Source: a virus (Duplodnaviria; Heunggongvirae; Uroviricota; Caudoviricetes). Taken from it: a stretch of DNA of 64,000 nucleotides. Below the pieces are notes generated by a model, which saw only the letters and a list, made by a program, of their open reading frames with translations, was not told where the DNA came from and searched no databases. Location: IMG/VR virus record IMGVR_UViG_2671180984_000014. The stretch is one strand, 5' to 3'. The position numbers were made by a program, and so were the translations under genes. Positions 896 through 34,904 of this stretch are shown here, one piece after another (the first letter of the stretch is position 1; each line of letters opens with the position of its first letter).

Positions 896-1793
896 GCACT
901 GGAAAAACATTACTATTTATAAACTTTCTCGTGAGGCGGATCTGACCGACTTAGAAGATAAAAAGAAAATGATCCTTTTCACGCCATGCGGTAGTCAGGA
1001 TATGGCCAAGTTCGGTTTTGTATCGCCATTTGGTGATAATTCTGAAGTTATCGCTATGCATGGAAATGGTTTTATCCTTGTTGAAGCAAAGCGCGAAACA
1101 AAAATTCTTCCCCCGCCGGTTATCCAGCGAGCTATTCAAGAAAAAATTGAAAAACTTGAGCAAGAACAAGCGCGTAAACTGAAGAAAACAGAGAAGGACT
1201 CCCTGAAAGACGAAGTTCTGCATTCTCTTCTGCCACGGGCTTTTTCAAAGTTTTCTGTTATCCAGGCGATCTACGACGGTTCAACTAAACGTATCTATAT
1301 CAATGCCAGCGCGCGGCAGGCAGAGGATATGCTCGCGCTTATGCGTAAGTCTCTGGGTTCTCTTCCTGCTGTTTCCCTGAGTGTTGAAAATCCCATTGAA
1401 TTAACGCTGACCGACTGGGTACGTGATGGTAGTGCTCCACAGGGATTTCAAATGGGGGATGCGGCAGAACTTAAGGCAGTGCTTGAGGATGGCGGTATTG
1501 CCCGAGTGAAAAAGCAGGATTTGGGAAGCGATGAAATTTCCACACACCTGGAAGCTGGCAAGCTCGTCACTAAGTTGGCACTCGACTGGCAGAACCGCAT
1601 TAAATTTACACTGGACCATAACTTCAGCCTTACCAGCGTCAAATTTGCGGATGAATTGCTTGAGCAGAACTCTGATATTGATAGTGAAGATGTTGCGCAG
1701 CGACTGGACGCAGATTTCTTCCTGTTGACCAGTGAAATTTCGTGCCTGGTTGATGCTCTGGTAAATGCCCTTGGCGGAGAGGCTAAGCAGTGA
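888..1793 (+). CDS. rdgC: RdgC-family recombination-associated protein
   Basis: 301-aa ORF with near full-length resemblance to enterobacterial RdgC ([38 protein letters not shown]-terminal GGEAKQ); stop overlaps GTG start of next gene (GTGA). Confidence 0.85.
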
Positions 1794-4700
1794 AAGAGCT
1801 GTGCTATGGATCTGTTTGCAGTGGAATTGAAGCCGCGAGTATTGCCTGGGAACCGTTGGGTATGCGTCCGGCGTGGTTTGCTGAAATCGAGCCTTTTCCA
1901 TCGGCCGTTCTTGCGCTCCGCTGGCCCCATGTTGCCAACCTTGGCGACATGAAAAAACTTGCCAAAAAAGTCTTGGCTGGGGAAATCGAATCCCCTGACG
2001 TGCTCGTCGGGGGAACACCATGTTTTACCGCGGGGCATATGGTTCTTTGTAAAAATGGCTATAAACCAATAGAAAATGTTTGCCCTGGTGATTACGTAGT
2101 CAGTCATCTCGGGCGGTTACAACAAGTAAAAAGAGTTGGTTCAAAAATAGCTAATACGGGGTTACTTAATGCCGTTGGGCAGCCTTTAGGTATAAGAACA
2201 ACCAATGACCATCCCTTCCTGGCTGTTCGGTGGAAAGCCCAAAACACCCGGAAAAATGGCACATATTTTAAGAGAGAGTTGTTGTCTGAACCGGAATGGC
2301 GAGCAGCATGTGATATGCCGGGATATCAATGGTGCGCTCTAACTAATTTCAATATTGCATTTCCAGATATTTGTTCTCGGTTCTTGTCTGAAGAACAGGC
2401 TATGTATCTTGCGGGCGCTTATGTTGGCGATGGATATATTAGGAGATGGAGAGGTAAATCTAAGAAGGCGGTTGTTTTTGGCATAAATTGCCAGAAATTG
2501 AGAAAGTTTCATTGCCGCATACCAGAAAACATATTTTCCGTGGCAAGCGAAATCCGAGGGAGCATCAAAGTAACCTTGAATGATACGTGTTATGCCAATT
2601 GGCTTAATGAACATTTTGGCGAGTTAAGCCATGCTAAGCGTATCCCTGCATGGGTGATGTCGCATCCATTGCGTCATGTGTTTTTACAAGGCTATCTTGA
2701 TACTGATGGGACACCAAGTGGTAAAGCGGGATTTAGAATTAATAGTGTTAGTTCTGCGCTTGCTTGGGGCGTTGCGGGGTTGTCACAGACTTGTGGTTAT
2801 GTTTCTTCGGTCAGCTTTATTGAAGTTGAGCCCAAAAAAGTGATCGAGGATCGCGTGGTAAATCAACGGAATTATTATCAGGTAACAATCTGCCCGCAGA
2901 AATTGTCACGTAAATCAAGATTGGCTCATGGAATGCTTTTACGAACAGTCAAAGAGTTTAAATCGGTAGGCCTAGATACTGTATACAACATAGAAGTCGA
3001 AGGTGATCATTCCTATATCCTCAATGGTGCGGTGGTCCATAACTGTCAGGCATTCAGTATCGCGGGATTACGTGGTGGGCTTGATGATGAGCGTGGCGCG
3101 CTAACTTTAAAGTATGTGGAGCTTGCAAATGCAATTGACGACAAACGGGCTGAGTCATTTCTCAAACCAGCCGTTATCGTCTGGGAAAATGTCCCAGGAG
3201 TCTTGTCATCGGCAGATAACGCCTTCGGATGTTTCCTTGCCGGATTGGCTGGAGAAGATGTGCCATTTGAACCAGGTGATCGACCTGAATCAGGAAAAAG
3301 CAACGCGTTCTGGCGGTGGGATGGCAAAACCGGTTGCCATGTTCCAAAGTGGCCGCAGTGTGGTTGTATTTATGGACCGCAGCGAAAAGTGGCCTGGAGA
3401 ATCCTTGATGCCCAATACTTCGGAGTGGCACAACGACGCCGACGCGTGTTTGTTGTCGCAAGTGCTCGAACAGATCTCGATCCCGCAACGGTACTTTTTG
3501 AGTTCGAAGGCGTGCGCCGGAATATTGCGCCGAGCAGAGGCGAGGGGAAGGAAACTACCAGATATACTTCAAACATCGCTATCAGAACTTGCGATGATAC
3601 AAACATAATTGCCATGGCACATGGGCAAGGAGGGGCTGAGATAAAAACCGATAATTCGGCACCAACTTTGACATGTAACCATGAAGCACCAATTGTATTG
3701 CTCGGCGACGGTAGAATGCGCCGTCTTACCCCTGTCGAATGTGAAAGGCTGCAAGGTTTTCCTGATTGGCATACGTTGATCCCTACGGAAAAGCGTAAAA
3801 AAGTTAATTCAGATGAACTGGCATATCTGCACAATCACTATCCAGATTTAAGCGAAGAAGAGGCCGCAATGCTTGCAGCTGACGGACCGCGTTACAAAGC
3901 GATCGGCAATAGTATGGCAATACCAGTAATGCGCTGGATTGGCGATCGGATTACTAAGGCCGTATGTCGGCAGAAAGAAGGAAGTGAAACAAAAGAGCGA
4001 AAAGTTAAACCAGCGGCAGAATTCGAACGGTCCATATTCAAATGGGCTGGTGGAAAATTTGGTGTTCTGGAACAAATCTTTCGCTATTTGCCAGAAGGGA
4101 AGCGCCTGATTGAACCTTTCGTTGGTGGCGGAGCTGTCTTCATGAATGCCGGATACCAGGAAAATCTGCTAAATGATGTGAATGCTGACCTGATTAACTT
4201 TTACAAGACTCTGCAACGCGAGGCGCATTCACTTATCACTCTGGCACATCGTTTCTTCCAGGACTACAACACACAGGAAGGATACCTGGCAGTACGGAAT
4301 GCGTTTAACAAACAAGTCTATGATGATTTACATCGCGCAGCGGCGTTTTTGTTCCTGAACCGACATTGTTTTAACGGATTGACGCGTTACAACCAGGCCG
4401 GTGAGTTCAATGTCGGTTATGGGAAGTATAAAACTCCGTATTTCCCATTACAGGAGATGGAAGCCTTCCTCGGTGCGGAAGGGCGGTCTGAGTTTGTATG
4501 CGGTGATTTTGCAGCGGTGATTGAAGCTGCCGGAGAAGGAGATGTCATCTTTTGCGATCCGCCGTATGAACCGCTTCCAAATACAGAGGGATTCACGAAC
4601 TATTCCGGTCATGACTTTAAGTTTGAAGAGCAAAAACGCCTGGTGTCTCTGTTGACGGATGCTCATCGTCGAGGTGCAAAGGTTCTCATTACTAACAGTG

Positions 4701-4831
4701 GCGCGCCAAACATCAGAGAGCTTTATCATGACAGTGGCTTCAGAGTGGAACCTCTTTTTGCCAGACGTTCTGTGTCTTGTAAGGGGGACACTCGAGGTGT
4801 AGCTCATGACGTTTTGGGTATATTGCTCTAA
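1790..4831 (+). CDS. dmt: bifunctional DNA methyltransferase (C5-cytosine MTase fused to Dam-family N6-adenine MTase), intein-containing precursor
   Basis: 1013-aa uninterrupted frame; C5-MTase motif I (SVCSGIEAA), split motif IV (GGTP / CQAFSIAG), motif VI (VWENVPG), VIII (QRRRRVF), X ([13 protein letters not shown]); C-terminal ~270 aa with FKWAGGK and FCDPPYEP of Dam-class MTases. Confidence 0.85.
2021..3043 (+). mobile_element. intein with LAGLIDADG homing-endonuclease domain, in frame inside C5-MTase motif IV
   Basis: 341 codons starting with Cys (CFTAGHMVL), block B TxxH (RTTNDHPF), two LAGLIDADG-like blocks ([21 protein letters not shown]), terminal VVHN followed by +1 Cys; removal restores [12 protein letters not shown]. 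Confidence 0.8.
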
Positions 4832-4849
4832 TAAATTTATTAGTGTAAT
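4822..4849. promoter_or_regulatory. C1 operator (perfect match) plus overlapping inverted degenerate copy
   Basis: ATTGCTCTAATAAATTT at 4822-4838 overlapping the dmt stop codon; inverted partial copy AAATTTATTAGTGTAAT at 4833-4849. Confidence 0.6.
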
Positions 4850-5012
4850 ATTACCTCAATGAATCGTGATTTATAGAGCGATTTAGCTGTTAGCCGCGAC
4901 AGGCGCGGCGGTAAGCATGGCTGGGCCTAGTCCTCCCAGACAAACCACCGAGTTGCCAGGTTGACCATGCGCCTAAGTGGCAACGCCGAAGTGCGTTACG
5001 AGCGTCCAGTTT

Positions 5013-5038
5013 GCCCATCTTCGGGTGGGCGTTTTTTT
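5013..5038 (+). terminator. rho-independent terminator
   Basis: GC-rich hairpin GCCCATCTTCGGGTGGGC followed by GTTTTTTT. Confidence 0.55.
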
Positions 5039-5220
5039 CAGGGTTTTCGTCATGGTTAGCGACTTTGCGGCGGTTTAGAAACTGACCATTAAAGTAAATG
5101 CAAACGATGATCTGATGATGGTAGCGGCCTAAGAAGCCAGATGCCATGGGGTATGAGTCGTCCCCCGTCAAAAAATCGACCGCAGAGTGTCCCCGTCTGT
5201 GTATTAGGGAACGGGGAGGC

Positions 5221-5300
5221 ACAACAGGTAAGGGCGCTGGTGTGATTAACCAGATGAACGAGAAGGGGCCATCTGTTGGTCAGCGTCCTTTCCTGTTGCG
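5221..5300 (+). repeat. stem-loop module, upstream member of a four-copy family
   Basis: ACAGGTAAGGGCGCTG ... CAGCGTCCTTTCCTGT imperfect inverted repeat followed by TGCGTTTTC; related to modules at 5753, 6113, 6395. Confidence 0.35.
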
Positions 5301-5503
5301 TTTTCTTTTCAGCGTAACAGCGGTGCTTAACAGCACTTTGGGTACAGTTCCACGAATTTACGGGTATATCCCGTCATGCTGAAGGCGCTAATCACGCTGG
5401 AAGCCAGGGTTATGCATCCCCTGTTACCGAATTGCAGCCAGGGCGCGGTGCGCCGAAAAGCATACGGAGGTGGAAGCCCTCGCCGGAGACGTACCCGGCA
5501 AGT

Positions 5504-5578
5504 GATGGTGTAGCTCAGCGGTAGAGCAGTTGGCTGTTAACCAACTGGTCGGTAGTTCGAATCCACCCACCATCGCCA
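5504..5578 (+). tRNA. trnA: tRNA-Asn (anticodon GTT)
   Basis: cloverleaf: acceptor GATGGTG/CACCATC, D-arm GCTC-AGCGGTA-GAGC, anticodon stem GTTGG/CCAAC with loop CTGTTAA, T-loop TTCGAAT, encoded CCA. Confidence 0.7.
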
Positions 5579-5583
5579 CTTTA

Positions 5584-5670
5584 GGGGAGTTAGTCCGTAG
5601 GGGTAGCGGGGTAGACTGTAAATCTACTGTCATTGCGACTCGGGTGGTTCGACTCCATCACTCCCCACCA
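5584..5670 (+). tRNA. tRNA-Tyr-like (anticodon GTA), long variable arm
   Basis: acceptor GGGGAGT/ACTCCCC perfectly paired, anticodon stem GTAGA/TCTAC with loop CTGTAAA, long variable arm, T-loop TTCGACT, encoded CCA; D-arm less canonical. Confidence 0.55.
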
Positions 5671-5674
5671 CATT

Positions 5675-5750
5675 GCCGATTTAGCTCAGTTGGTAGAGCA
5701 GTCGCTTTGTAAGCGAATGGTCAGCGGTTCGATCCCGTTAATCGGCACCA
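5675..5750 (+). tRNA. trnT: tRNA-Thr (anticodon TGT)
   Basis: acceptor GCCGATT/AATCGGC, D-arm GCTC-AGTTGGTA-GAGC, anticodon loop TTTGTAA, T-arm AGCGG-TTCGATC-CCGTT, encoded CCA. Confidence 0.8.
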
Positions 5751-5752
5751 AC

Positions 5753-5830
5753 ATAACAGGTAAGAGCATTCTCCCTTATGGGGCCTGGCTTAAATGCATC
5801 GAGTGCTCTTACCGTTGTGATGAAGTGCAG
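5753..5830 (+). repeat. stem-loop module, copy 1
   Basis: 10-bp inverted repeat GGTAAGAGCA ... TGCTCTTACC followed by GTTGTGATGAAGTGC. Confidence 0.45.
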
Positions 5831-6112
5831 ATCTTAGAAGCAACCAGAAGATAAGCATCTGGCTTCACAACATAAACCGCAGGAACGACCAATAAACGGT
5901 AGTCCGTATGGAGAACACCCCGTTGAGGAAGAGGCCTGGCCGGAACCGTAACCGGCGACTGGTAATGTGTGTAAATGGAGCGAAATATGTGGGCGTTTAA
6001 CGGGATACGGGTTGTAACAGCGATTATTAACGGCGAACTTAAGTATTCACGTTTCGAGACAAATGAACGTGATGGGAAATGTATTGGTGTGCGGTTAGTA
6101 AGAGAATACGCA

Positions 6113-6225
6113 TAACAACTACAACGTTGAGAACACTGGCGTAACGGGGTCATATCCCAATCTACGAATAAATGTTGCGTTGCCGCGTGACAACCAGTGT
6201 TCTCAACATTGTGGTGAATGCACAG
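6113..6225 (+). repeat. stem-loop module, copy 2
   Basis: perfect 14-bp inverted repeat GTTGAGAACACTGG ... CCAGTGTTCTCAAC; loop contains GTAACGGGGTCATATCCCAATCTAC; followed by ATTGTGGTGAATGCAC. Confidence 0.45.
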
Positions 6226-6394
6226 GCTGATGTGCCGCAACTACAGTAGTGCGCGCTTTGCGGGGCTTGCTACAACCCTGTGTCGGAGTTCAGCACCGAC
6301 CATCACAGTTTGATTCTCTGGCATGAGCATAACGCTGAAATAAGTCCAGTCTGGTGCGGTCTGATCACCCGCCGTTAGCTCCACGAAACGGAGC

Positions 6395-6485
6395 ACGTAA
6401 CAGGTAAGAGCATTCTCCTGTAACGGGTTCATATCCCAATCTACAGGTCCACCAAGAATGCTCTTTCCGTTGCGGTGAATGCGGC
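6395..6485 (+). repeat. stem-loop module, copy 3
   Basis: 14-bp inverted repeat GGTAAGAGCATTCT ... AGAATGCTCTTTCC (1 mismatch); loop contains GTAACGGGTTCATATCCCAATCTAC; followed by GTTGCGGTGAATGCGG. Confidence 0.45.
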
Positions 6486-6623
6486 TAAGCGCACGCGGGG
6501 AAATGGTTATATCTGTCCATTATTTCTCCTTGTTTCCACGTCCACGGTGGATAACCAGCCAAAGGACACCGGGAGGAACCCGGCACCGCAGCTTTTTTAT
6601 TCGTTAAATAATGGAGTGAGAGG

Positions 6624-6860
6624 ATGCAGAACAATCCGAACAAATGTCGAACGCTATGGGTGCGGTTATATATTTATGCCGTCCTCTGTTTGATTGTGTC
6701 ACTGGTTCTGTATGTTTGGCTTTTGCCAAATATGATCTCATCTAACAGCACAATACTTGTATTGTTGGGAGTCCTTCTCGCGCTCATTTACCCGGCTTTC
6801 GCAGTAGTCTTTTTTCGTGAAAAAACCAGGAAATTAATTAATGAAAAAAACGTTGATTAG
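6624..6860 (+). CDS. upl: small membrane protein upstream of plp
   Basis: 78-aa ORF with two hydrophobic helices; overlaps plp start; position matches P1 upl. Confidence 0.45.
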   Translation: MQNNPNKCRTLWVRLYIYAVLCLIVSLVLYVWLLPNMISSNSTILVLLGVLLALIYPAFAVVFFREKTRKLINEKNVD

Positions 6861-7668
6861 TGCAGCGATTATTTTGGGTTCTTTATGTCTGACCGGATGC
6901 GATCGGGTAGAGCCAGGTAACGTAGGGATCAAAGTAAATAAGCTGGGGGATGATAAAGGTATCGGTGAAGTAGTTGGCGTTGGTCGCTACTGGACAGGCT
7001 TGAATACTGAAGTTTATATCTTCCCGACCTTTAAGCAAATGAAGACATACGATGAGCCGTTCAGCTTCCAGATGAGCGACGGAACAACCATTGGTTACCA
7101 CATCGGCGTAGCCTACAAGGTTGATCCAGCAAAAGTCACAACGGTATTTCAGACCTATCGCAAAGGTGTAGATGATATTACTGATACCGATCTACGCCAG
7201 AAGGTTGCAGATGCTCTGAACCGATTAGCCAGCAAAATGACCACCGACAAATTTATCGACGGTGGCAAATCTGAATTGCTTGATGCAGCCCTTAAAGACA
7301 TTCAGGAAGAAATGACGCCAATCGGCATTCAGGTGATGAGCCTCTCTTATGTAGGTAAGCCAGAATACCCGCCAACAGTTATTGACAGTATTAACGCCAA
7401 AGTCACGGCAAACCAAAAAACCCTGCAACGCGAGCAAGAGGTCAAACAACGTGAAGCAGAGGCCAACATGCTGCGCGCGGAAGCTGCCGGACAGGCTGAT
7501 GCTATTCGCACAAAAGCCCAGGCCGAAGCTGATGCCATTCGTTTACGTGGTGAAGCTCTGCGCCAGAACCCCGGTGTTATGGACTTGGAAGCGATCAACA
7601 AATGGAACGGTACATTACCGCAGTATATGACCAGTAATACCGCTGTTCCGTTTGTTCCGGTGAAATAA
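6841..7668 (+). CDS. plp: SPFH/band-7 domain lipoprotein
   Basis: signal peptide with lipobox LTGC; prohibitin/HflC-like core and Ala/Glu-rich coiled-coil tail. Confidence 0.7.
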   Translation: MKKTLISAAIILGSLCLTGCDRVEPGNVGIKVNKLGDDKGIGEVVGVGRYWTGLNTEVYIFPTFKQMKTYDEPFSFQMSDGTTIGYHIGVAYKVDPAKVTTVFQTYRKGVDDITDTDLRQKVADALNRLASKMTTDKFIDGGKSELLDAALKDIQEEMTPIGIQVMSLSYVGKPEYPPTVIDSINAKVTANQKTLQREQEVKQREAEANMLRAEAAGQADAIRTKAQAEADAIRLRGEALRQNPGVMDLEAINKWNGTLPQYMTSNTAVPFVPVK

Positions 7669-7695
7669 AAGCGTAAGCAAAATTGGCAGTAATCC

Positions 7696-7771
7696 GGCCC
7701 TTTAGCTCAGTGGTTAGAGCTGGCGACTCATAATCGCACGGTCACCGGTTCAAGTCCGGTAGGGGCCACCA
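7696..7771 (+). tRNA. trnI: tRNA with CAT anticodon, tRNA-Ile2 (lysidine) type rather than tRNA-Met
   Basis: acceptor GGCCCTT/AGGGGCC, anticodon loop CTCATAA, T-arm ACCGG-TTCAAGT-CCGGT, encoded CCA; overall close to enterobacterial ileX as recalled. Confidence 0.75.
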
Positions 7772-8051
7772 TATTTGGTTGTAACACGGCGTCTGGCACA
7801 TGCGTCGTTAGCGGTCTGGTGACGTTAAAGGGGTAACCTTTCCCCTAGCTCAGGCAACAAACCAGGTAGCCGGAATGTGCAAGCCCCGTTCATAGCGTCG
7901 GACTGCGGATTCACCATCCTGGCGATTCGGTGTGACAGCCGGGAAGAGTCCGGCGCATTAATCCTGATTTTCTGGTGATGACTCATATCGTTAGGAGTGA
8001 TTTGAGTATGCCGATTATATCTGACATTCAGCACGCCTGGGTGGAGTGCTA

Positions 8052-23050: not shown

Positions 23051-23640
23051 CAATTGACTATCAGGCACTGCGAGATGCGGCAGTTGCAGTAGAAACAGAA
23101 CCTATGCATCAAAATTTTGTGGCGTTTCGTATGGCGTTCACGCCATCGGTGGCACTGGCACTACTGGATGAAATTAAGCGGCTGGAAGACACAAATATTG
23201 ATGCTATGTGCCGTATTGCAGAGCTTGAGACTAATCTCGCGGCGCTGGTGGCAGAGAACGCCGGACTGAAACACGCAATGGCCGTAACTCTTGAGCATGT
23301 GTCGGTCACGGATGCAGGGCAGGCTGGTGTTGCTGCAATGATTATCAACGATGCCCTACACCACAGCGAAACTCCAGCTACCGATGCTTTTCTGGCTGAA
23401 ATTCGTGCGGAAGCACGCAACGAGGGGATTAACTATACCGCCAGCCGTCTTGCTGCTGCGTTCAATCACGGATTTATCAATAAGTCTTTGCGTGAAGTTT
23501 TCGACGTTACACGCATGATTTTGTCAGCGAAAGAAGAGTTGGCTAATGAAGCGCATCCGATTGATGGCCTGTCTGGTGAATATGCGGAGAAATCCCTTGA
23601 AGAATGGGCGGAACAGATTCGCAAAGGAAGCAGCCAGTGA
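23038..23640 (+). CDS. Ea22-like coiled-coil protein, paralog
   Basis: N-terminal IDYQALRDAA and internal ETPATDAFLAEIRA segments shared with neighbouring genes. Confidence 0.4.
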   Translation: MARMTIDYQALRDAAVAVETEPMHQNFVAFRMAFTPSVALALLDEIKRLEDTNIDAMCRIAELETNLAALVAENAGLKHAMAVTLEHVSVTDAGQAGVAAMIINDALHHSETPATDAFLAEIRAEARNEGINYTASRLAAAFNHGFINKSLREVFDVTRMILSAKEELANEAHPIDGLSGEYAEKSLEEWAEQIRKGSSQ

Positions 23641-23927
23641 ATATCGACACGACAATAACGATCGATACGCTCCTAAATACCGGTCTGGCACTTCTCGGTT
23701 GGCTTTTCATCATGTCCCGTACATGGCGATGGCTGGGTTCCATTTTCCTAAAACAGTGGAAAAAACGGCGCAAACAGGAACTACGCCAGAAGGCATTAGA
23801 AGCGTTCTATGACGCATTTGAGCTTAGCCGCATTGAACCAGGTACAACAGCTAGGATAGCGACAAAAGGCGACCTGATGATAGTGATGTTCCGACAGGAG
23901 AGAGCAGAGAAAGGGGAATCAGCATGA
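23604..23927 (+). CDS. small membrane protein
   Basis: hydrophobic helix LLNTGLALLGWLFIM; start may be GTG 23637 overlapping upstream stop. Confidence 0.3.
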   Translation: MGGTDSQRKQPVNIDTTITIDTLLNTGLALLGWLFIMSRTWRWLGSIFLKQWKKRRKQELRQKALEAFYDAFELSRIEPGTTARIATKGDLMIVMFRQERAEKGESA

Positions 23928-24628
23928 AATTTTCCAAATTTTCTGAGTTGGTGAATCGTATTTTGTTCAACAACCACAGCCATCGTCGCGATATGGATGT
24001 AACAATCGTTGTTCATTCGCCTGGCAGCATTGGTTCAACACCCTCAGTTGAGGTTCAGTCAATTCACGCTGGTTTTGATTGGGATTCCGGGACAGTGCTG
24101 ATTTTCCCAGCACAGCCACTGACCACGCTAACACCAGAACAGATTACTGATATTACTGATAGTGTGCGCAAAGGTCAGTCCTGGCACGCATATCAGGAAT
24201 ACAAGAAGCATAAAGAGCAGTTGGAAAAATTATCGATTGAACTTGATGCCGCAAAACAGCGCATTGCAGAGCTGGAGGGTAATTGCGCGGCGCTGGCGGC
24301 GGAGAATGCGGCAATGCATGAAACTATTGAAGCCGTTCGGGGTGTTGCGGATAACTCCAGTGGAATTGCCGGATGGCATTTGAATGGCGATATCGCTACA
24401 TGGGAAGAGATTCTTCCTGAAATTAACGATATCGAAACCCCAGCCACCGATGCTTTTCTGGCTGAAGTACGTGCGCAGGGCGTGGAGATGCTGGCAAAAA
24501 ATCATCAGAGTATCGTCAATGCACTTAAGGGAGATTCTTTATTTTCTGATGGTGAATACCGACATGCAGCTATTGTTTCCGCAGCTGTATATTTCGCTGC
24601 AGAGCTTCGCAAAGGAGGCAACCAGTGA
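23924..24628 (+). CDS. Ea22-like coiled-coil protein, paralog
   Basis: shares ETPATDAFLAEVRA module and coiled-coil segment with 23038-23640. Confidence 0.4.
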   Translation: MKFSKFSELVNRILFNNHSHRRDMDVTIVVHSPGSIGSTPSVEVQSIHAGFDWDSGTVLIFPAQPLTTLTPEQITDITDSVRKGQSWHAYQEYKKHKEQLEKLSIELDAAKQRIAELEGNCAALAAENAAMHETIEAVRGVADNSSGIAGWHLNGDIATWEEILPEINDIETPATDAFLAEVRAQGVEMLAKNHQSIVNALKGDSLFSDGEYRHAAIVSAAVYFAAELRKGGNQ

Positions 24629-25281
24629 GCGAAATTAATTACCAGGCACTGCGTGAGGCGGCAGAACGTGCAACTCCAGCAATGGAACGCCTGTTAATGT
24701 TGCCAGTTGATGATGATTTGTTAAGTGAACAGGAACTTAAAGATTACGGTGTGGATATTGATGCGCTCAACGCCTTCAAATTTCTGACCGGACCAGAAAC
24801 CGTGCTGGCACTACTGGATGAACGGGAAAGAAACCAGCAATACATCAAATCACGCGACCAGGAGAACGAGGAGATTGCGCTTACGGAAGGGAAGCTGCTA
24901 ATCGAAAACGGCCGGCTTGTTGCCGATACGCTACGCCACTTAGCTGATAACGAAATCGACTCTGATTATTTTGCTATCACCTCAACGAATGAGAACGGTA
25001 CTGAAATTGATCATGAGATGGCTATTACCGATTACGCACTGCAAGCTGCCGGAACTGTAGACGAATTGGTTGCGGCGTTGGAATCCGCAGAGAATCGCAT
25101 TGCAGAACTGGAAGCACGGGAAATATCGCTCCCAGAACGTAGCAGCATGCTTCATCGAACAGATTTTCACGATGATTACCAAACGGTAATGGCATACAAA
25201 GTTTCTGAAGTCATCGCTGCAATCCGCGCCGCTGGCATTCGCATCAAAGGAGAGGAGCATGGAAATAAAACCAGAAGATGA
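24625..25281 (+). CDS. Ea22-like protein, paralog
   Basis: N-terminal INYQALREAA similar to 23038-23640; VLALLDERE repeat. Confidence 0.4.
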   Translation: MSEINYQALREAAERATPAMERLLMLPVDDDLLSEQELKDYGVDIDALNAFKFLTGPETVLALLDERERNQQYIKSRDQENEEIALTEGKLLIENGRLVADTLRHLADNEIDSDYFAITSTNENGTEIDHEMAITDYALQAAGTVDELVAALESAENRIAELEAREISLPERSSMLHRTDFHDDYQTVMAYKVSEVIAAIRAAGIRIKGEEHGNKTRR

Positions 25282-25615
25282 GTTAAGCAATATCGTTTTA
25301 TTTCCGGTAAAAGAGGATGACCCACGTAATCAGGTTAATTTTCTCTATGAGCCATCGGAAAGACCATATTGCCATCACGCCTCTGTCCGGGTTGACGAAA
25401 AAGAGCGTCAGGTCCGCTGTAAAATCTGCGGTGCAGTTGTGGAGCCATTTGACTGGATGCTCTCTGTGGCGAAAAGAGAAACCAGACTGGCAGATGATGT
25501 AAGGATCTTGCGCCAGGAGGAACGGGAAAGGCGGAGAAATATAGAAAAGCTAATTCAGATTGAGCGTAACGTGAAAGCGCGGATACGCAGGGTGACAAAA
25601 TCCAGAACTGAATAA
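25259..25615 (+). CDS. hypothetical zinc-ribbon protein
   Basis: 118 aa; CHH...CKIC Cys/His pattern. Confidence 0.3.
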   Translation: MEIKPEDELSNIVLFPVKEDDPRNQVNFLYEPSERPYCHHASVRVDEKERQVRCKICGAVVEPFDWMLSVAKRETRLADDVRILRQEERERRRNIEKLIQIERNVKARIRRVTKSRTE

Positions 25616-25663
25616 TTAAATTTAGCTCTGTTAAAAATTTAATCCTTAACCGGAGGTATATCA

Positions 25664-25876
25664 ATGTCAAACGCACAGAAAGTTATTAACGCTGAAAAAT
25701 ATAACGAGTGGGTGAAAAAGTTCTCAGAGCAGATTTTTAAAATTACTGGCGACGAGAATGCGGCAAAAAATGAATTAGAGCCGTGGACACCTGAAGGTGT
25801 CGACCCAAATTATTGCTGGTGGGATGTTGATCCAGTTGATGCTGCAAATGAAGCTATGAGTTATCACAACGATTAA
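25664..25876 (+). CDS. hypothetical protein
   Basis: 70-aa ORF with GGAG RBS. Confidence 0.3.
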   Translation: MSNAQKVINAEKYNEWVKKFSEQIFKITGDENAAKNELEPWTPEGVDPNYCWWDVDPVDAANEAMSYHND

Positions 25877-26076
25877 TGTCAGGAGGCCGCCCGAAAGGGC
25901 GGTAATGAAAAGTGACTGAATTAACCAAAGAGAAATTAATCGAAGAAGCCAAATTAAAAATAGCGATTGCGAAATGCTACCCCAATTCAGGGATGGCACG
26001 GGTATAGGGCGAGTTATTCAAAATTGCACTGGCATAGCTGGAAGCAGATCCAGTTAAACGAGTTAACTCAGATCAG

Positions 26077-26775
26077 ATGCACCGAGTCTGCTTAGAAGCT
26101 AATCGCTATTTAGATAAATATGACGCGATGGCGAAAGAGGTAAATAAGTTGCTTGGACGCATCGCCCCGCCAGCGCCAGTATTTAACGGCGAATACGGTG
26201 ACGCATATCAGGGCGCTCGTGAAGACCTGTCCATCTGGAAACGGCGAGCGCTTGAAGCTGATGAGCACGTTCGGCGACTGGAGCAAATCAATGACCACAT
26301 GGTGAAAGAGGCGCAGGGAGAATCACGCATGGGCGAGCCTGTAATACGTGAGCCAGCACCGGTAGTGCCTGAAGAAGCAACTCCGGAAAACGTAGAAATG
26401 CTCTCTGGCTATGTTTCAACGTACAAATTAACCGATAGCGAGCGCGATATTGCTGCCGAAATATGGAACGCCTGCCGCGCCGCCATGCTTCAGGCTGGAA
26501 ACTTTCGGGAAAATAAGGGTTCGTCAACCAATAATTTTCGGGAAATCTCGGAAACGTCAACCAACTATCCGGTAACTCCGGATGGTTGGATAAGCTGTAG
26601 TGAGCGAATGCCCGCTCAAGATGATTGGATTTTAATTTATTCAAAGCACGGTGAGTATATGGCAGGACAGGTGCAAGGGGAATACGTGGAGTTGAGCGAC
26701 GGCACTTTATCGTGGTTAGGGAACGCCTTGTTCTGGATGCTGCTACCAGAACCTCCCCAGGAGGCAGGTCAATGA
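26077..26775 (+). CDS. hypothetical protein
   Basis: 232-aa ORF. Confidence 0.35.
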   Translation: MHRVCLEANRYLDKYDAMAKEVNKLLGRIAPPAPVFNGEYGDAYQGAREDLSIWKRRALEADEHVRRLEQINDHMVKEAQGESRMGEPVIREPAPVVPEEATPENVEMLSGYVSTYKLTDSERDIAAEIWNACRAAMLQAGNFRENKGSSTNNFREISETSTNYPVTPDGWISCSERMPAQDDWILIYSKHGEYMAGQVQGEYVELSDGTLSWLGNALFWMLLPEPPQEAGQ

Positions 26776-26839
26776 GCTGGCCTGAAGCATTCGCAACGGT
26801 AGGAATTGTGATGGCGGCAGCACTGGGTTTGTATTCAAT

Positions 26840-27091
26840 TTGTCGCTGGTGGTAACGATGGGGAAATTAACTTTTGTAGTCGAATTTGAGGATGGTAAAG
26901 AGCCACCTGTTAGCGCCAATCTTGATGTTGCTGGTGGCAGGCTTGTTTCGGTTCTATTTGGTGACTACCGAGATGATTTCTTCCAACCAGAAGAAGTTGA
27001 TGTGGTGCGAGAGGCATTAAACGAGTTAAGTGTTGATAACGATGATGCTCATGCGGAAATCATCCAAAAAATGGAACTGCTAACTCACTAA
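26840..27091 (+). CDS. hypothetical protein
   Basis: 83-aa acidic ORF. Confidence 0.3.
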   Translation: MSLVVTMGKLTFVVEFEDGKEPPVSANLDVAGGRLVSVLFGDYRDDFFQPEEVDVVREALNELSVDNDDAHAEIIQKMELLTH

Positions 27092-27139
27092 ATTATCAAT
27101 TATGGTGCTATCACCTACGACACCGAGAGAAAATTTATA

Positions 27140-27262
27140 ATGTCAAAAGTAAATGTTTTGATTTTTTCAGCAATTGTTGGCTTTGGTTTTACTGCCGGAG
27201 TGCAGATTTATATTGCGTGGGAAAAAATCATCAACTACGCATGGAGTTGTTTTATTAAGTGA
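27140..27262 (+). CDS. 40-aa hydrophobic micro-protein
   Basis: MSKVNVLIFSAIVGFGFTAGVQIYIAWEKIINYAWSCFIK; AT-rich context; not in ORF track (below size cutoff). Confidence 0.3.
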   Translation: MSKVNVLIFSAIVGFGFTAGVQIYIAWEKIINYAWSCFIK

Positions 27263-27269
27263 GGTAAGT

Positions 27270-27563
27270 ATGTGGAGAGGTAATAGTCATGGCAAAAGCC
27301 AGATGATACTTACCGAATATAAGCTAGACCACAAAACCAATAAATCACGTTCAGTATATTTGCTTCGCCACAATAGCCGCGTAAGGAATACCGTACTGGA
27401 GCAAAATCTGACCGTTGAAATGGATAATTACGGGGGCTTCAAGCCAACAATATCGCTTGATGATTTTCCTCGTGGTTTAAGCGAAAGAGAAGCAATGCTG
27501 AAATTAGCAGAATGGCTACAAAGATTAAGCATTGCTATTGAAGATAACTGGTCTGAACCTTAA
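27270..27563 (+). CDS. hypothetical protein
   Basis: ATG 27270 with GAGG RBS; AT-rich islet. Confidence 0.35.
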   Translation: MWRGNSHGKSQMILTEYKLDHKTNKSRSVYLLRHNSRVRNTVLEQNLTVEMDNYGGFKPTISLDDFPRGLSEREAMLKLAEWLQRLSIAIEDNWSEP

Positions 27564-27569
27564 ATTTAT

Positions 27570-27944
27570 ATGATGACACTAAAACATTTTCTTGACCGCC
27601 CATTATGGGCGGCAGCCGCAGGCTATGACTTTAATTATATGGATTGCATGTCTTATACTGCCAATGCATACGACCATTCGTTCAGCCTGCTGTTTAATTC
27701 TTTAAGAATATTGCCGCAAACAGAAGTTGGAGAGCTTCATTTATGGCTATTGGGCTTTATCGCGGCTGGAGTTGGTATTGCTGTATGGCCTTTTATTTTC
27801 TGGCTGGTGGCTGTTGTAGTGTGGTTTAAGTGCAAGACGTACCGGAAAAAGTATTTCTTAGGTGATGGAATGACTGATATTGCCAAAATGAACATTGAAA
27901 AATGGACTAAGGAATGTGAAAAGAAATGGCGCAAAAAGAAATGA
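27570..27944 (+). CDS. membrane protein
   Basis: 124 aa; two hydrophobic helices (LWLLGFIAAGVGIAVWPFIFWLVAVVVWF) and Lys-rich tail. Confidence 0.4.
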   Translation: MMTLKHFLDRPLWAAAAGYDFNYMDCMSYTANAYDHSFSLLFNSLRILPQTEVGELHLWLLGFIAAGVGIAVWPFIFWLVAVVVWFKCKTYRKKYFLGDGMTDIAKMNIEKWTKECEKKWRKKK

Positions 27945-28606
27945 CTACTCTAACGACAGCATACTTACAGCAATTGGTATTTTTTGCAGGCGAGGCTACT
28001 TGTCATCCTGACGCAAACTATTTATTGGAATTTGAGAGGTTAGCGTCACCCGGTATCGTTCTGGAACTGGCCCAACAGGTGCTGGCCTTAAGACAAAAAG
28101 AGCAACATGAAAGTAATACGTGTAGATTGAATTTTGAGCAGTGGCTGGAACAGCAACGCGGAAAAATCGATGTGGACTGTGGTTGTGTGTCTACTGAAAC
28201 ATTCATGCACTGGCTGCGGGTAGCTTACGAGGCTGGCAACTATCCGGATATTCCGGATAGTTCGGTGCCAGCGCCAGGAAAGGGCGTCACCGGTGAACGT
28301 ATCCGCATTAAGCCGCATGTTTATCGCGAACTGGTTAACCGTCTCCACGATACAGCGATCAAGTGTGCAGGCACCCGGCAATTACGAGAAAAAATTAGCC
28401 GTGTTTTGGGCGACGTTATTACGCCAGATCATCATAAACAAGCCGAGAAAAGTGGCCTGGAAAGGTGTCACCTTGAGGCGGCATTAAACATTAAGCCGGG
28501 GCATACGCTTGGCATTATTGATGCACTATTGGTTCATAAGATGGCCAGGGCTTTATTGCCGCTGGTGGCTGATAAGCATGAGGCGGGCCATGCCAACGAA
28601 AGCTGA
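27926..28606 (+). CDS. Ea22-like hypothetical protein
   Basis: 226-aa ORF. Confidence 0.35.
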   Translation: MAQKEMTTLTTAYLQQLVFFAGEATCHPDANYLLEFERLASPGIVLELAQQVLALRQKEQHESNTCRLNFEQWLEQQRGKIDVDCGCVSTETFMHWLRVAYEAGNYPDIPDSSVPAPGKGVTGERIRIKPHVYRELVNRLHDTAIKCAGTRQLREKISRVLGDVITPDHHKQAEKSGLERCHLEAALNIKPGHTLGIIDALLVHKMARALLPLVADKHEAGHANES

Positions 28607-28874
28607 GTTACAGGCGCGCATAGAGATTCTTGAAAAAGAGAATGCGAGTCTAAAAGGAATGCTGGCGCGGGCGGAAAGGGAATTATCAGGCAAATTATTG
28701 CCAGAAGAACTGCCACCAGCAGATATACCAGATCGAGTGTCCCGGTGGATGAAGTCTTTTGGTTTACCGTGGGAGGCTTTTTGGTGCTACGAGCATCGCA
28801 GATGGTGTGATGAACTTGATAGCAGTTTCCCCTACTTTGCGGAAGGGAACACCTGCCCTGAGTGTAGGAGGTAG
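28590..28874 (+). CDS. hypothetical protein with coiled-coil and Cys-rich tail
   Basis: ATG 28590 with GAGG RBS; C-terminal CYEHRRWC...CPEC. Confidence 0.3.
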   Translation: MPTKAELQARIEILEKENASLKGMLARAERELSGKLLPEELPPADIPDRVSRWMKSFGLPWEAFWCYEHRRWCDELDSSFPYFAEGNTCPECRR

Positions 28875-28878
28875 CGCG

Positions 28879-29157
28879 ATGTTTCGTCCTCGTCCAATAC
28901 CGCCGAAAATAACTAATGGCTATCAGCCGAATACTCCAGAAATACAAGGGAGCGAGGGGCTTAAACCACCACCAGCACCACGTATTCCGCCTGTAGCAAG
29001 GAACGTATCATTACGACGAGAGTTAATATTAGCCTTGTCGCCCGTTCTGGCTGCCCGCCAGGATTGGGTAAGTAATGATGACCTGGCAGAAAAAATCACA
29101 TCGCTGGTGGATAAAATTCTGCAGATTGGCAATGAGATTACGCTGATCCATTGGTGA
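28879..29157 (+). CDS. Pro-rich hypothetical protein
   Basis: ATG 28879 with AGGAGG RBS. Confidence 0.3.
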   Translation: MFRPRPIPPKITNGYQPNTPEIQGSEGLKPPPAPRIPPVARNVSLRRELILALSPVLAARQDWVSNDDLAEKITSLVDKILQIGNEITLIHW

Positions 29158-29278
29158 TGAATAGTAGCAAAGCGCACAAAATCATCTGCGGTGGTTGGTG
29201 TACATAACGAGTTTGCACCAAAGGTGTCTCTTTAATGTATACTGTATAAATGAACAGTATTATTGAGGTGAAAACGCT

Positions 29279-29668
29279 ATGGGCTTCCCTTCTCCTGCGG
29301 CGGATTATGTTGAAAGCAGAATTTCTCTTGATCAGCAACTAATCAGGCATCCATCAGCGACCTACTTCATGCGGGCGGCAGACAGCCATCACCGTGAGGG
29401 AATATTGCAGGGTGCTTTGCTGGTGGTTGATTCCTCGCTTACTCCGGTTGATGGTTCGCTGCTTGTCTGCGCTATGGAGGGTGAATATCGCATAAAGAGA
29501 TACCGAAAGTATCCGCGCCAGCACCTGGAGGATTTAAGCACCGGGAAGAAAGAGGCGTTACCAGTAGATGACGATGGATACACGGGCAGTAATGCTGTTT
29601 TTGGTGTGATCACTCATGTCATCAATGATGCCCGAAGTGGGGAGTTTGATGATTGTCCGGTTATTTAA
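29279..29668 (+). CDS. humD: UmuD-like S24 peptidase (HumD)
   Basis: 129 aa; LexA/UmuD-type C-terminal domain, matches P1 humD position upstream of phd-doc. Confidence 0.75.
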   Translation: MGFPSPAADYVESRISLDQQLIRHPSATYFMRAADSHHREGILQGALLVVDSSLTPVDGSLLVCAMEGEYRIKRYRKYPRQHLEDLSTGKKEALPVDDDGYTGSNAVFGVITHVINDARSGEFDDCPVI

Positions 29669-29740
29669 GCTGCAAAGGGCTGGTGCTTTATGCCTGTTAG
29701 GTTTATAATTGTGTACACATAACGAGTACACGAGGTGTTT

Positions 29741-29962
29741 ATGCAATCCATTAACTTCCGTACCGCGCGCGGCAACCTTTCTGAAGTGCTCAACAATGTT
29801 GAAGCCGGGGAAGAGGTTGAAATCACCCGCAGAGGCCGTGAGCCAGCAGTAATTGTCAGCAAGGCTACTTTCGAAGCCTACAAAAAAGCGGCGCTGGATG
29901 CTGAATTTGCATCCCTGTTTGACACCCTGGACTCCACCAACAAGGAACTGGTTAACCGATAA
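29741..29962 (+). CDS. phd: Phd antitoxin
   Basis: 73 aa [39 protein letters not shown]... recognised as P1 Phd; stop overlaps doc start. Confidence 0.9.
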
Positions 29963-30342
29963 TGAGGCATATATCACCGGAAGAACTTATTGCGCTTCAT
30001 GATGCGAATATAAGCCGCTACGGCGGCCTGCCTGGCATGTCAGATCCGGGCAGGGCAGAGGCCATTATCGGGAGAGTTCAGGCCAGAGTTGCCTACGAAG
30101 AGATCACCGACCTTTTCGAAGTCTCCGCCACCTACCTGGTGGCTACAGCGAGAGGGCATATATTCAATGATGCCAATAAGCGTACCGCGCTAAACAGCGC
30201 GCTGCTATTTCTACGCCGTAACGGGGTGCAGGTATTTGATTCACCTGAACTGGCAGACCTTACTGTAGGCGCTGCGACTGGCGAGATATCTGTATCTTCT
30301 GTCGCCGACACGTTACGTAGATTGTATGGTTCCGCGGAGTAG
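29962..30342 (+). CDS. doc: Doc toxin (Fic-fold kinase)
   Basis: 126 aa [39 protein letters not shown]... with [11 protein letters not shown] Fic-type motif. Confidence 0.9.
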
Positions 30343-30346
30343 ATTA

Positions 30347-30526
30347 ATGGCACGTAAATACAACAAATTGTCCCGTGAAGCGTTAAAGATGCTTCTTGAT
30401 GGCGTGAGTCGCCGCGAGGTAAAGCAATACCTGGTTGGTAAGCAAATTGGTGCCAGGACCGCTATTGCTGTGTTATGCCGTCAGGAAATGGTTGTGCTTA
30501 AACAGAGAATGCCGGGCAGCAGATAA
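30347..30526 (+). CDS. hypothetical small protein (pdcA position)
   Basis: 59-aa ORF from ATG 30347 with GGAG RBS. Confidence 0.35.
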   Translation: MARKYNKLSREALKMLLDGVSRREVKQYLVGKQIGARTAIAVLCRQEMVVLKQRMPGSR

Positions 30527-30553
30527 AGCCCAATCAGTGATGAAAGGTGTGAT

Positions 30554-31597: not shown

Positions 31598-31614
31598 AAT
31601 TGCTCTAATGTATT
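31598..31614 (+). promoter_or_regulatory. C1 operator-like site upstream of lpa
   Basis: ATTGCTCTAATGTATTG, 3 mismatches; P1 lpa is C1-controlled. Confidence 0.45.
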
Positions 31615-34901: not shown

Positions 34902-34904
34902 ATA

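Follow-up and report, generated by a model that had tools for sequence, protein, structure and literature searches.

Stem-loop RNA modules of a P1-type ban operon leader and their relatives in lambda and other prophages

RNase III, which requires about two helical turns of double-stranded RNA and shows little sequence specificity, cleaves hairpins in the lambda N leader, in sib, in the T7 early RNA, and just 3′ of metY (tRNA-fMet2) in metY-nusA-infB; these hairpins (R1–R5 in T7) punctuate polycistronic RNA, free stable RNAs or tRNA, and set mRNA stability. Co-transcribed inverted repeats that RNase III or RNase E cleaves include the Correia repeats of Neisseria and the enterobacterial ERIC repeats, and some mRNAs mimic tRNA arms, for example in the thrS operator. 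The late leader of lambda is reported to undergo RNase III processing (Daniels, Subbarao, Blattner, and Lozeron, Virology 1988, as cited in reference 49 of PMC7547250), and the STnc100/PasD small RNAs sit in prophage leaders (bioRxiv 10.64898/2026.05.13.724894; PMC12370729).

Here, four related hairpin modules (M1–M4) are described that lie around the tRNA cluster of a P1-type ban operon. They are best explained as paralogues of a single structured RNA module, which is repeated along the long, untranslated leader of this C1-repressed operon. The hairpins most likely fit a known kind, the RNase III leader sites, with an initiator-tRNA-like cap as an intriguing extra.

Layout of the leader and anatomy of the modules

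The window analyzed here is a stretch of 64,000 nucleotides of phage DNA; for the C1-repressed Pban leader, the + strand is the sense strand. The elements follow each other in the order dmt, Pban, dicF-like RNA, M1, three tRNAs, M2, M3, M4, and terminator. The Pban promoter with its C1 operator, an Op72-type palindrome (4820–4851, +), was recovered as inverted repeat I2 and is homologous to P1ban/P2ban/Obanab of P1; the leader transcript bearing all of the modules starts there. The dicF-like region (4946–5047, +) ends in a hairpin with a T-run and matches the P1 misc_feature “dicF-like region” position for position with 98% identity; the Rfam DicF model gave no match to it. The tRNA cluster (5504–5750, +), identified by ARAGORN, Rfam, and comparison with P1, comprises tRNA-Asn(GTT) at 5504–5578, tRNA-Tyr(GTA) at 5584–5670, which is absent from P1, and tRNA-Thr(TGT) at 5675–5750. 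The cargo of the operon downstream of the leader (6624–7771, +) occupies the place of P1 tciABC-trnI and includes a 78-aa membrane ORF, an SPFH/Band_7 lipoprotein gene (6841–7668), and a tRNA(CAT) gene (7696–7771). The stretch with the modules was initially characterized as ORF-poor, and it does contain only short ORFs, none of which matched a Pfam family.

In general, the arms of a module (ACAACAGGTAAGAGCA / TGCTCTTNCCGTTGTG) form a stem of 19–25 bp, often with a bulged A and a 1 × 1 mismatch, on top of which sits a variable apical insert. Conserved arms with a stem of at least 17 bp are fully present in M2 and M4, and M1 and M3 match with divergent arms. In the divergent module M1 (5213–5307, +), the conserved 5′ arm CACAACAGGTAAGGGC pairs with the 3′ arm GCGTCCTTTCCTGTTGCG in a hairpin of about 30 bp. 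M2 (5749–5822, +; arms CATAACAGGTAAGAGCATTC / GAGTGCTCTTACCGTTGTG) begins at the 3′ end of tRNA-Thr, and its apical insert lacks an anticodon-arm-like hairpin; a homologue of M2 with the same insert was found on another contig (L202). M3 (6118–6215, +) is a three-way-junction module with a 22-bp base stem (ACTACAACGTTGAGAACACTGG / CCAGTGTTCTCAACATTGTGGT), an arm capped by GGGGTCATATCCC (6146–6158), and a second hairpin. M4 (6396–6474, +) has arms AACAGGTAAGAGCATT / TGCTCTTTCCGTTG identical to those of a lambda hairpin and an apical arm CCTGTA..TACAGG capped by GGGTTCATATCCC (6425–6437).

The four stem-loops are real and non-random. The 5′-arm motif AACAGGTAAGRGC occurs three times in the window (5223, 5755, and 6399), where 0.04 occurrences are expected by chance, and the module arms are found at the module sites only. 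The inverted repeats of M2, M3, and M4 were recovered by the repeat tool (I8, I1, and I5, respectively). The + strand fold energies were −46.3 kcal/mol for M1 (z −5.3), −33.9 for M2 (z −4.5), −50.2 for M3 (z −6.7), and −35.9 for M4 (z −4.3), and the minus strand folded more weakly in each case. All four elements lie at approximately the positions given in the preliminary description. The stems, however, measure about 19–30 bp with their flanks, not 10–14 bp as was then supposed, which corresponds to the roughly two helical turns of RNase III substrates (at least 20 bp, internal loops tolerated). Similarly, the shared 25-mer GTAACGGGKTCATATCCCAATCTAC lies in the third and fourth copies (6141–6165 in M3 and 6420–6444 in M4), not in the second and third. 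The conserved tail GTTGYGRTGAAKGC described at the same time does follow M2, M3, and M4, whereas M1 retains only GTTGCG and then a U-rich tract that belongs to its own stem. The tail motif alone is weakly significant in the window, with 5 matches against 1.8 expected; the match at 40265 was rejected as a module because the surrounding stretch has no inverted repeat.

Relatives in P1, lambda, and prophages

The modules are not specific to this plasmid. Phage P1 has the same four copies, which lie beneath the annotated minus-strand ORFs plp and upl, so that the earlier idea of a replaced P1 segment does not hold. Identity to P1 amounts to 98% over 4800–5578, 82% over 5645–5956 (M2 and the domain D2 behind it), and 97.5% over 6118–6598. 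The differences are the additional tRNA-Tyr, the genes downstream of 6600, and a 161-nt insertion (5957–6117, +) that carries a 46-aa ORF (5975–6115) and stands outside the module family.

In lambda, a single copy is located at 44,785–44,865, directly after tR′; its arms are identical to those of M4 and M2, and it is the only hairpin of at least 19 bp between tR′ and S. The module was also found in many lambdoid and ST64B/SfV-type prophages. A covariance model (R1) built from the prophage copies alone, without any P1 sequence, matched M4 at 6385–6478 (36.9 bits, E 8e-9), M3 at 6109–6219 (31.0 bits, E 6e-7), the lambda copy (23.5 bits), and the HK629 copy (21.9 bits). The match to M2 was marginal (13.8 bits, on both strands), and R1 did not detect M1. 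The put antiterminator RNA of HK022 was compared via the R1 model only and was rejected as a relative, as R1 had no match in HK022 23,000–40,751.

The base stem covaries: among 49 distinct copies, 94.1% of the cells were paired, compared with 87.9% in shuffles, none of 500 of which reached this value, and with 36–60% in slid controls; compensatory changes were observed in 10 of the 17 pairs. In the three-way junction, 8 of 32 pairs showed compensatory changes. The palindromic arms match both strands, and therefore the statistics of ORF orientation were meaningless until the tail fixed the strand of each module. With the strand assigned by the tail, the downstream ORF lay on the strand of the module in 73 of 78 cases (73 against 5), and a T-run was present at most 22 nt upstream of the module in 59 of 92. 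The annotated contexts are all operon leaders, namely P1 Pban, the interval between tR′ and S in lambda and HK629, the Klebsiella Q-tRNAs-holin arrangement, and the position after cI in ST64B-type prophages. These five contexts are phage or prophage leaders; elsewhere, the matches fall under no annotation or a hypothetical protein.

One subclass of the module is present in 46% of complete E. coli genomes (2,493 of 5,426; 3,329 places in all), with a median of one copy per genome and mostly 95–100% identity between copies. The DLP12, Qin, and CPS-53 prophage regions of E. coli K-12, a strain with published RNase III maps, contained no module; the region upstream of yfdP is rearranged in the K-12 comparison. 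A scan of genome contigs with a 15-mer of the tail returned nearly all chance matches and one real E. coli copy, and thus gave no taxonomic information.

The module is a very common structured RNA, yet one without an Rfam family. Rfam 15, applied at gathering and relaxed thresholds to the window and 20 related loci, had no family covering the hairpins; the relaxed scan gave microRNA-type matches, which reflect generic long hairpins, and STnc100 below threshold downstream of M4. The E. coli, lambda, and P1 records inspected have no ncRNA annotation of the module. A literature search on the hairpin sequence, the P1 ban operon, and tRNA mimics, with the P1 genome and 1988 lambda papers outside its range, yielded nothing on these hairpins.

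Downstream domains and proposed processing of the leader

The 3′ tail (GUUGYGGUG in the RNA) contributes the 5′ strand to a second, long-range helix, whose CACCRCAAC-type partner strand lies downstream of M2, M3, and M4. This helix encloses a downstream STnc100-type domain in each case (D2, D3, and D4). In D2 (5814–5871, +), the M2 tail GUUGUGAUG (5814–5822) pairs with CUUCACAAC (5863–5871), and a homologous 58-nt domain with a compensatory change from G-C to A-U was found at a related locus (L010). In D3 (6208–6309, +), the M3 tail AUUGUGGUG (6208–6216) pairs with CAUCACAGU (6301–6309); the domain holds GCACAGGCUGAUGUGC and UCGGAGUUCAGCACCGA hairpins that resemble those of lambdoid late leaders. 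D4 (6469–6599, +) is closed by a 9-bp helix of GUUGCGGUG (6469–6477) and CACCGCAGC (6584–6592), which is directly followed by a run of six T at 6593–6598. By sequence and predicted fold, D4 is therefore terminator-like, in agreement with the first impression of a terminator at the end of the region. The 5′ strand of its closing helix overlaps the outer stem of M4, so alternative pairing is possible.

D4 shares with STnc100 (RF02076) the closing helix UGGUG...CACCA and a CCGGGAGGCACCCGG hairpin. The Rfam match at 6471–6590 scored 38 bits against a gathering score of 47 (E 3e-6) and covered model positions 31–147 of 206, so that D4 lacks positions 1–30 and 148–206; D2 and D3 are more divergent. 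ST64B shows the same STnc100 match, whereas no hairpin module lies upstream of the true STnc100 in 933W. The initial proposal of processed small RNAs thus retains some ground for the segment downstream of M4, as a sub-threshold relative of STnc100. Through the modules and their domains, the P1 ban leader is connected with the late leader of lambda and with the STnc100/PasD small RNAs of prophages.

Among the candidates named at the outset, an RNase or tRNA-processing signal is the best supported: the modules offer 19–25 bp of double-stranded RNA, they lie on the sense strand of a leader that contains tRNAs, and their arms are those of the hairpin in the lambda late leader, for which RNase III sites are reported. 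We give about an even chance to the modules being RNase III processing and stability hairpins of the leader RNA. Once Pban is active, the leader would be dissected by RNase III cleavage in the two-turn stems. This would free the tRNA cluster and the STnc100-like RNAs and would determine where the downstream mRNA, including ban, begins, how stable it is, and how strongly it is expressed. If so, processing would account for the release of tRNAs and small RNAs from long phage leaders and would show how leaky read-through past tR′-type terminators is handled.

The closest counterpart is the lambda late-leader hairpin, which resembles M4 and M2 in its arms, its bulged A, its sense orientation within an operon leader, and its downstream-pairing tail. 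We infer that the lambda RNase III sites of 1988, as far as they can be judged from the citation, fall within the hairpin at 44,785–44,865. The lambda copy is single, stands directly after a terminator, and has no tRNAs beside it, whereas the four P1 copies are interleaved with tRNAs; unlike M3 and M4, its insert contains no anticodon-arm-like hairpin. The T7 R1–R5, lambda N leader, sib, and metY-nusA-infB sites are likewise paralogous hairpins of about two turns with internal loops, but they have no sequence similarity to the modules, no conserved cap, and no coupled downstream domain. Because RNase III is hardly sequence-specific, processing by this enzyme leaves the conservation of the arms from P1 to lambda and the near-invariant prophage cap unexplained. 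In addition, the tail can pair either with its own 5′ arm or with the downstream partner, which makes the arrangement more attenuator-like and counts against the RNase III reading.

Accordingly, the modules might be an attenuator/antiterminator switch that tunes read-through into ban rather than directing cleavage, a possibility that we consider rather unlikely. The outer stem CACAAC...GUUGUG would compete with the closing helix of the next domain, GUUGUGGUG...CACCACAAC, and, since the closing helix of D4 has a T-run, formation of M4 would block termination. The overlapping pairings in M4/D4 and in lambda (I2 versus I4/I5), the U6 at the end of D4, and the covariation of the closing helix (GUGCUG/CAGCAC in lambda, GUUGCG/CGCAAC in P1, and GAUG/CUUC in D2) are consistent with such a switch. 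However, a U-rich tract follows just 6 of 98 tail–partner pairs and does not follow that of lambda, and there is no known ligand or factor to set the switch. The D-domain examples were, moreover, chosen for complementarity, which makes the pairing evidence partly circular. A count of tail–partner complementarity with G-U pairs allowed is uninformative, as shuffled sequence already reaches 8.1 of 9. An attenuator switch and RNase III processing are compatible with each other and not exclusive.

The anticodon-arm-like cap and readings outside leader processing

A GGG-YUCAUAW-CCC hairpin, with a Y-U-CAU-A-W loop closed by three G-C pairs, is present in M3, M4, and the prophage subclass. This small hairpin had been described as T-arm-like; an anticodon arm fits better, as the loop starts with C across the wider family and the equivalent of T-loop A58 is U in the P1 copies. 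In the prophage subclass, the cap has a contiguous 14-nt identity (CGGGCTCATAACCC), the three G-C pairs included, to the anticodon arm of E. coli metZ tRNA-fMet. The P1 loops, UUCAUAU and GUCAUAU, differ from CUCAUAA at positions 32 and 38.

The stem could thus be only a processing cassette, with a functional apical insert that acts as a decoy or ligand for a reader of the initiator-tRNA anticodon arm; this we regard as doubtful, with a low probability. Candidate targets would be a VapC-type nuclease, the 30S P site with IF3, and MetRS. Besides the identity to metZ, TCATAA is kept in 47 of 48 distinct copies of the subclass, which were retrieved without reference to the hairpin and in which P1, P3, and the stems vary. 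U33 and CAU are invariant in the P1, Klebsiella, and ST64B variants, other inserts contain T-arm look-alikes, and real tRNA genes occur in the same leaders. Nevertheless, in a viable P1-like phage, Ro157c2YLVW (99.3% identical), a clean deletion of 13 nt removes this small hairpin from M4, and the rest of the module is not tRNA-like. Most inserts, including those of M1, M2, and lambda, have no tRNA-like part, and the P1 loops depart from CUCAUAA. Conservation of the cap could also reflect recent spread, because most E. coli copies are 95–100% identical. In a combined version, to which we assign a very small probability, the stems would be RNase III cassettes that excise small cargo RNAs from phage leaders; the cargo that recurs in M3, in M4, and in the subclass of 46% of E. 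coli genomes would imitate the anticodon arm of the initiator tRNA as a decoy or ligand for a host factor that reads this arm. The factor might be MetRS, the 30S P site with IF3, or a VapC-type initiator-tRNA nuclease serving in defence, and the mimic would complement the real tRNA genes of the same leaders. As a lead, the initiator-tRNA-like cap could be tested cheaply.

Decayed tRNA genes or remnants of tRNA flanks without a present function, suggested in the preliminary description, are very unlikely. It is true that modules adjoin tRNA genes (M2 at the end of tRNA-Thr, the Klebsiella copy directly after tRNA-Arg) and that some inserts hold look-alikes of the anticodon and T arms. However, neither ARAGORN, with or without introns, nor the Rfam tRNA model (E < 10 in the window and E < 1 at five related loci) found a cloverleaf in M1–M4 or in 50 delimited modules. 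The compensatory substitutions in the stems point to selection on pairing, and the anticodon arm of P1 trnI (GGCGACTCATAATCGC) is not the source of the motif.

An element acting at the DNA level, such as a MITE or Correia-like repeat, an attC-like site, a linker at mosaic boundaries, or a palindromic protein-binding site, is highly improbable, although the terminal inverted repeats of about 20 bp, the size of 70–180 bp, the variable center, and the occurrence at module boundaries of unrelated phage types would suit it. Correia and ERIC repeats are of similar size, with inverted-repeat ends, and form long hairpins within transcripts. The modules, unlike them, are not dispersed over the chromosome and show no sign of transposition; many near-identical copies at dispersed unrelated loci were not found, and the MITE/Correia-like class was rejected. 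By sequence inspection, the ends GCACAAC...GTTGTGC each deviate by one mismatch from the attC core RYYYAAC...GTTRRRY, and neither a transposase nor an integron integrase lies near the modules in the contexts inspected; the integron attC class was rejected on these grounds. Further evidence against a DNA element includes the strand-dependent structure (G-U pairs, the more stable + strand), the fixed 73:5 orientation to downstream genes, arms that covary instead of staying conserved in sequence, and the median of one copy per E. coli genome, with the five contexts examined all being phage or prophage leaders.

It is most improbable that Plp and Upl are encoded on the minus strand of this region and that the hairpins are incidental. 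These proteins are in the P1 annotation, and the window has the ORFs 5809–6240(−) and 6241–6432(−). However, no Pfam family matches either ORF, and the 161-nt insertion shifts the frame, so that Plp has only its first 41 aa in common with P1. Moreover, the homologues of this DNA in lambda and other phages are non-coding leaders, and its covariation is that of a + strand RNA. The P1 ORFs plp and upl are probably spurious, and a conserved RNA architecture replaces these two doubtful genes.

The hairpin modules and their place in the ban leader

The window represents a P1-type phage-plasmid, with 100% identity to several E. coli plasmids and 99.3% identity to phage vB_EcoM-Ro157c2YLVW. On the basis of homology with the annotated P1 genome, positions 4,830-8,010 are predicted to be the untranslated leader of the ban operon: dmt ends at 4831, and the C1-controlled promoters P1ban/P2ban with operator Op72 occupy 4820-4851. 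Downstream of these promoters lie a "dicF-like region," tRNA-Asn and tRNA-Thr, and about 700 nt that in P1 carry the minus-strand ORFs plp and upl, followed there by tciABC, trnI, and ban. This layout places four hairpin modules, M1 (5213-5307), M2 (5749-5822), M3 (6118-6215), and M4 (6396-6474), in sense orientation on a single transcript under repressor control.

Analysis confirmed the four elements noticed in the preliminary description. In 64 kb, the 5'-arm motif AACAGGTAAGRGC has three occurrences, all in the module region (0.04 expected); the inverted repeats were recovered by a repeat tool; and M1-M4 fold into long hairpins (-46.3, -33.9, -50.2, and -35.9 kcal/mol, respectively) with z-scores of -4.3 to -6.7 against shuffled controls. 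The reverse strand folds more weakly in every case, which indicates that the RNA is probably read from the + strand. The description was thus largely right, with corrections of detail: the stems measure 19-30 bp rather than 10-14 bp, the common 25-mer belongs to copies 3 and 4 rather than 2 and 3, and the conserved 3' tail is mostly missing from M1, the tail motif by itself being only weakly over-represented (5 matches against 1.8 expected). The idea of a replaced P1 segment did not survive alignment with P1, which has the four elements too, at identities of 98% across 4800-5578, 82% across 5645-5956, and 97.5% across 6118-6598.

Three differences from P1 were found. A tRNA-Tyr(GTA) gene (5584-5670) lies between tRNA-Asn and tRNA-Thr; a 161-nt insertion (5957-6117) contains a 46-aa ORF (5975-6115) with no Pfam match; and a 78-aa membrane ORF and an SPFH/Band_7 lipoprotein (6624-7668) stand in place of tciABC. 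In the interval from M1 to the tRNAs, CCACGAATTTACGGGTATATCCCGT (5340-5380) is similar both to the GCTCCACGAAACGGAGC hairpin before M4 and to the ACGGG..CCC cap; it may be the decayed remains of another unit. A perfect 12-nt long-range complement, GAAGCCAGATGC / GCATCTGGCTTC (5133-5144 / 5855-5866), encloses M1, the tRNA cluster, and M2, and its chance expectation is roughly 0.1 in the 1.9-kb stretch; both arms are kept in P1 relatives, with one uncompensated variant. The upstream dmt gene (1790-4831) encodes 1013 aa against 754 aa in P1. Its product contains an intein (Pfam Hint_2, LAGLIDADG_3, Intein_splicing) that includes a LAGLIDADG homing-endonuclease domain and interrupts the PCQ catalytic motif in the C5-methyltransferase half (GGTP|C...VVHN|CQAFS).

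A module family in phage and prophage leaders

BLAST and pattern scans demonstrated that the module is not confined to P1. In its common form, GCACAACAGGTAAGAGCATTG and CAGTGCTCTTTCCGTTGTGGTGAATGC enclose a variable insert (31-176 nt, median 53), a small hairpin follows, and a terminator T-run often lies 6-10 nt upstream. Four kinds of leader carry it: between Q/pR' and the holin gene in lambdoid phages such as HK629; directly 3' of a four-tRNA cluster in Klebsiella phages; after a cI-like repressor gene and before a yfdP-yfdQ-yfdR-type operon in ST64B/SfV/CPS-53-type prophages; and immediately after tR' in lambda (44,785-44,865). A covariance model built from 22 prophage copies, with P1 sequence excluded, folds as a three-way junction with compensatory changes in 8 of 32 pairs. 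It matched M4 (36.9 bits, E 8e-9) and M3 (31.0 bits, E 6e-7) as well as the P1, Klebsiella, HK629, and lambda copies; M2 was marginal, and M1 was not detected by this model. In a two-arm alignment of 49 distinct copies, M1-M4 and lambda included, 94.1% of cells are paired; shuffles give 87.9%, with none of 500 as high as the observed value, and slid partners give 36-60%. Compensatory changes affect 10 of 17 base-stem pairs; one stem position is unpaired in 26 of 49 copies, and a bulged A occurs in 26 of 49. Among 5,426 complete E. coli genomes, 2,493 carry one subclass, at 3,329 places in total, where it is annotated as "hypothetical protein" at most. The module family is very widespread and unannotated.

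With module strand fixed by the tail beforehand, the next downstream ORF was co-oriented in 73 cases versus 5. Of 92 distinct modules, 59 have a T-run no more than 22 nt upstream. Modules are often situated just past a terminator, so that only read-through or antiterminated transcripts would carry them, a placement that counts in favor of RNase III processing (below).

In one ST64B-type leader (L040, 9729-9763), a hairpin is followed by a perfect rrn-type boxA (GCTCTTTAACAA) soon after the promoter and operators, which suggests that Nus-factor antitermination may act upstream of modules. Just 5' of ban (7925-7957), GGCGATTCGGTGTGACAGCCGGGAAGAGTCCGGCGCA resembles a hairpin preceding modules in two lambdoid contigs (L173, L174); this likeness suggests that the whole ban leader could be a patchwork of lambdoid leader RNA pieces.

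Domains closed by the module tail

The Rfam scan proposed earlier assigned no Rfam 15 family to the hairpins, and gave a sub-threshold STnc100 match downstream of M4 (6471-6590; 38 bits, E 3e-6, where the gathering score is 47; model positions 31-147). The alignment pairs the M4 tail (UGCGGUG) with CACCGCA at 6584-6590, and ST64B gives the same match. Folding yielded a 9-bp closing helix (6469-6477 / 6584-6592) with T6 directly after it, so this domain, D4, looks terminator-like. Similar domains follow M3, where AUUGUGGUG (6208-6216) pairs with CAUCACAGU (6301-6309), and M2, where GUUGUGAUG (5814-5822) pairs with CUUCACAAC (5863-5871). Lambdoid leaders have the same arrangement of tail, first hairpin, variable middle, CCGG...CCGG hairpin, and partner strand. 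Tail and partner covary between lambda (GUUGUGCUG / CAGCACAAC) and P1-type copies (GUUGCGGUG / CACCGCAAC), and the closing helix after M2 has A-U for G-C relative to its homologue in L010; since the examples were chosen for complementarity, weight is placed only on these covariations and the constant partner position. This recurrent arrangement makes module plus domain the repeating unit.

STnc100 belongs, like its relative PasD, to the prophage sRNAs, and Hfq dependence is documented for PasD (PMC8550237; bioRxiv 10.64898/2026.05.13.724894; PMC12370729). In phage 933W, no module lies upstream of the genuine STnc100. A 131-nt domain on the minus strand of another locus (L160) looks tRNA-like inside its closing helix GTTGTGGTG/CACCACAAC, with a D-arm (GCTC-AACGGC-GAGC) and a canonical T-arm (GTGGTTCGACTCCAC), and drew no ARAGORN call.

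Proposed RNase III processing and alternative readings

The elements are homologues of the lambda late-leader hairpin coupled to STnc100-like domains, which classes them with phage leader processing hairpins. RNase III processing is the best-supported mechanism: the enzyme would cut the module stems, whose dsRNA spans about two helical turns interrupted by a bulge and an internal mismatch, and cutting of the long sense-strand leaders would free tRNAs and sRNA-like domains. Well-known parallels are found at the T7 early sites, in the lambda N leader and sib, and in the metY-nusA-infB operon at the hairpins that follow metY. The arms of the lambda copy are identical to those of M4, and this copy is the sole hairpin of at least 19 bp between tR' and S. 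RNase III sites are reported in the lambda late leader by a 1988 study, as cited in PMC7547250 (reference 49); we infer that they lie in this hairpin. Our confidence in RNase III processing is intermediate because conserved arm sequence, conserved cap, and alternative pairing are left unaccounted for.

The alternative pairing concerns GUUGUG, which can pair with its own module's 5' arm or with the downstream partner. Competition between the two could form an attenuator, a possible though rather improbable reading that is compatible with RNase III processing.

The apical arm of M3 and M4 is capped by GGG-(G/U)UCAUAU-CCC, and that of the prophage subclass by CGGGCUCAUAACCC, which is identical over 14 nt, three G-C pairs included, to the anticodon stem-loop of the E. 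coli initiator tRNA (metZ). Three G-C pairs in the anticodon stem are a mark of initiator tRNAs. The phage's own tRNA(CAT) has a different anticodon arm. Since the first module collection had been selected on the cap motif, retrieval was repeated with the 3' arm and tail only; the exact motif was present in 38 of 48 distinct modules and TCATAA in 47, among varying base stems and third arms. Other inserts are unrelated, and a few contain T-arm-like hairpins. Carriage of a tRNA-arm mimic as cargo in the apical insert is unlikely, and derivation from functionless tRNA remnants slightly more so. An essential role of the cap is disfavored by a clean 13-nt deletion that removes its hairpin from M4 in Ro157c2YLVW. 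The initiator-tRNA look-alike remains the unexplained feature of the module family.

A repeat acting at the DNA level is quite improbable. Least probable of all is that plp and upl are real genes: the ORFs have no Pfam match, and the 161-nt insertion shifts the frame, so that Plp agrees between the window and P1 in its first 41 residues only.

Elsewhere in the window, two C4 antisense-RNA genes were found, one on the + strand (35098-35185), preceded by an isrK-like RNA (34996-35073), and one on the minus strand (55205-55290), accompanied by an a1/b1 target element (55359-55411).
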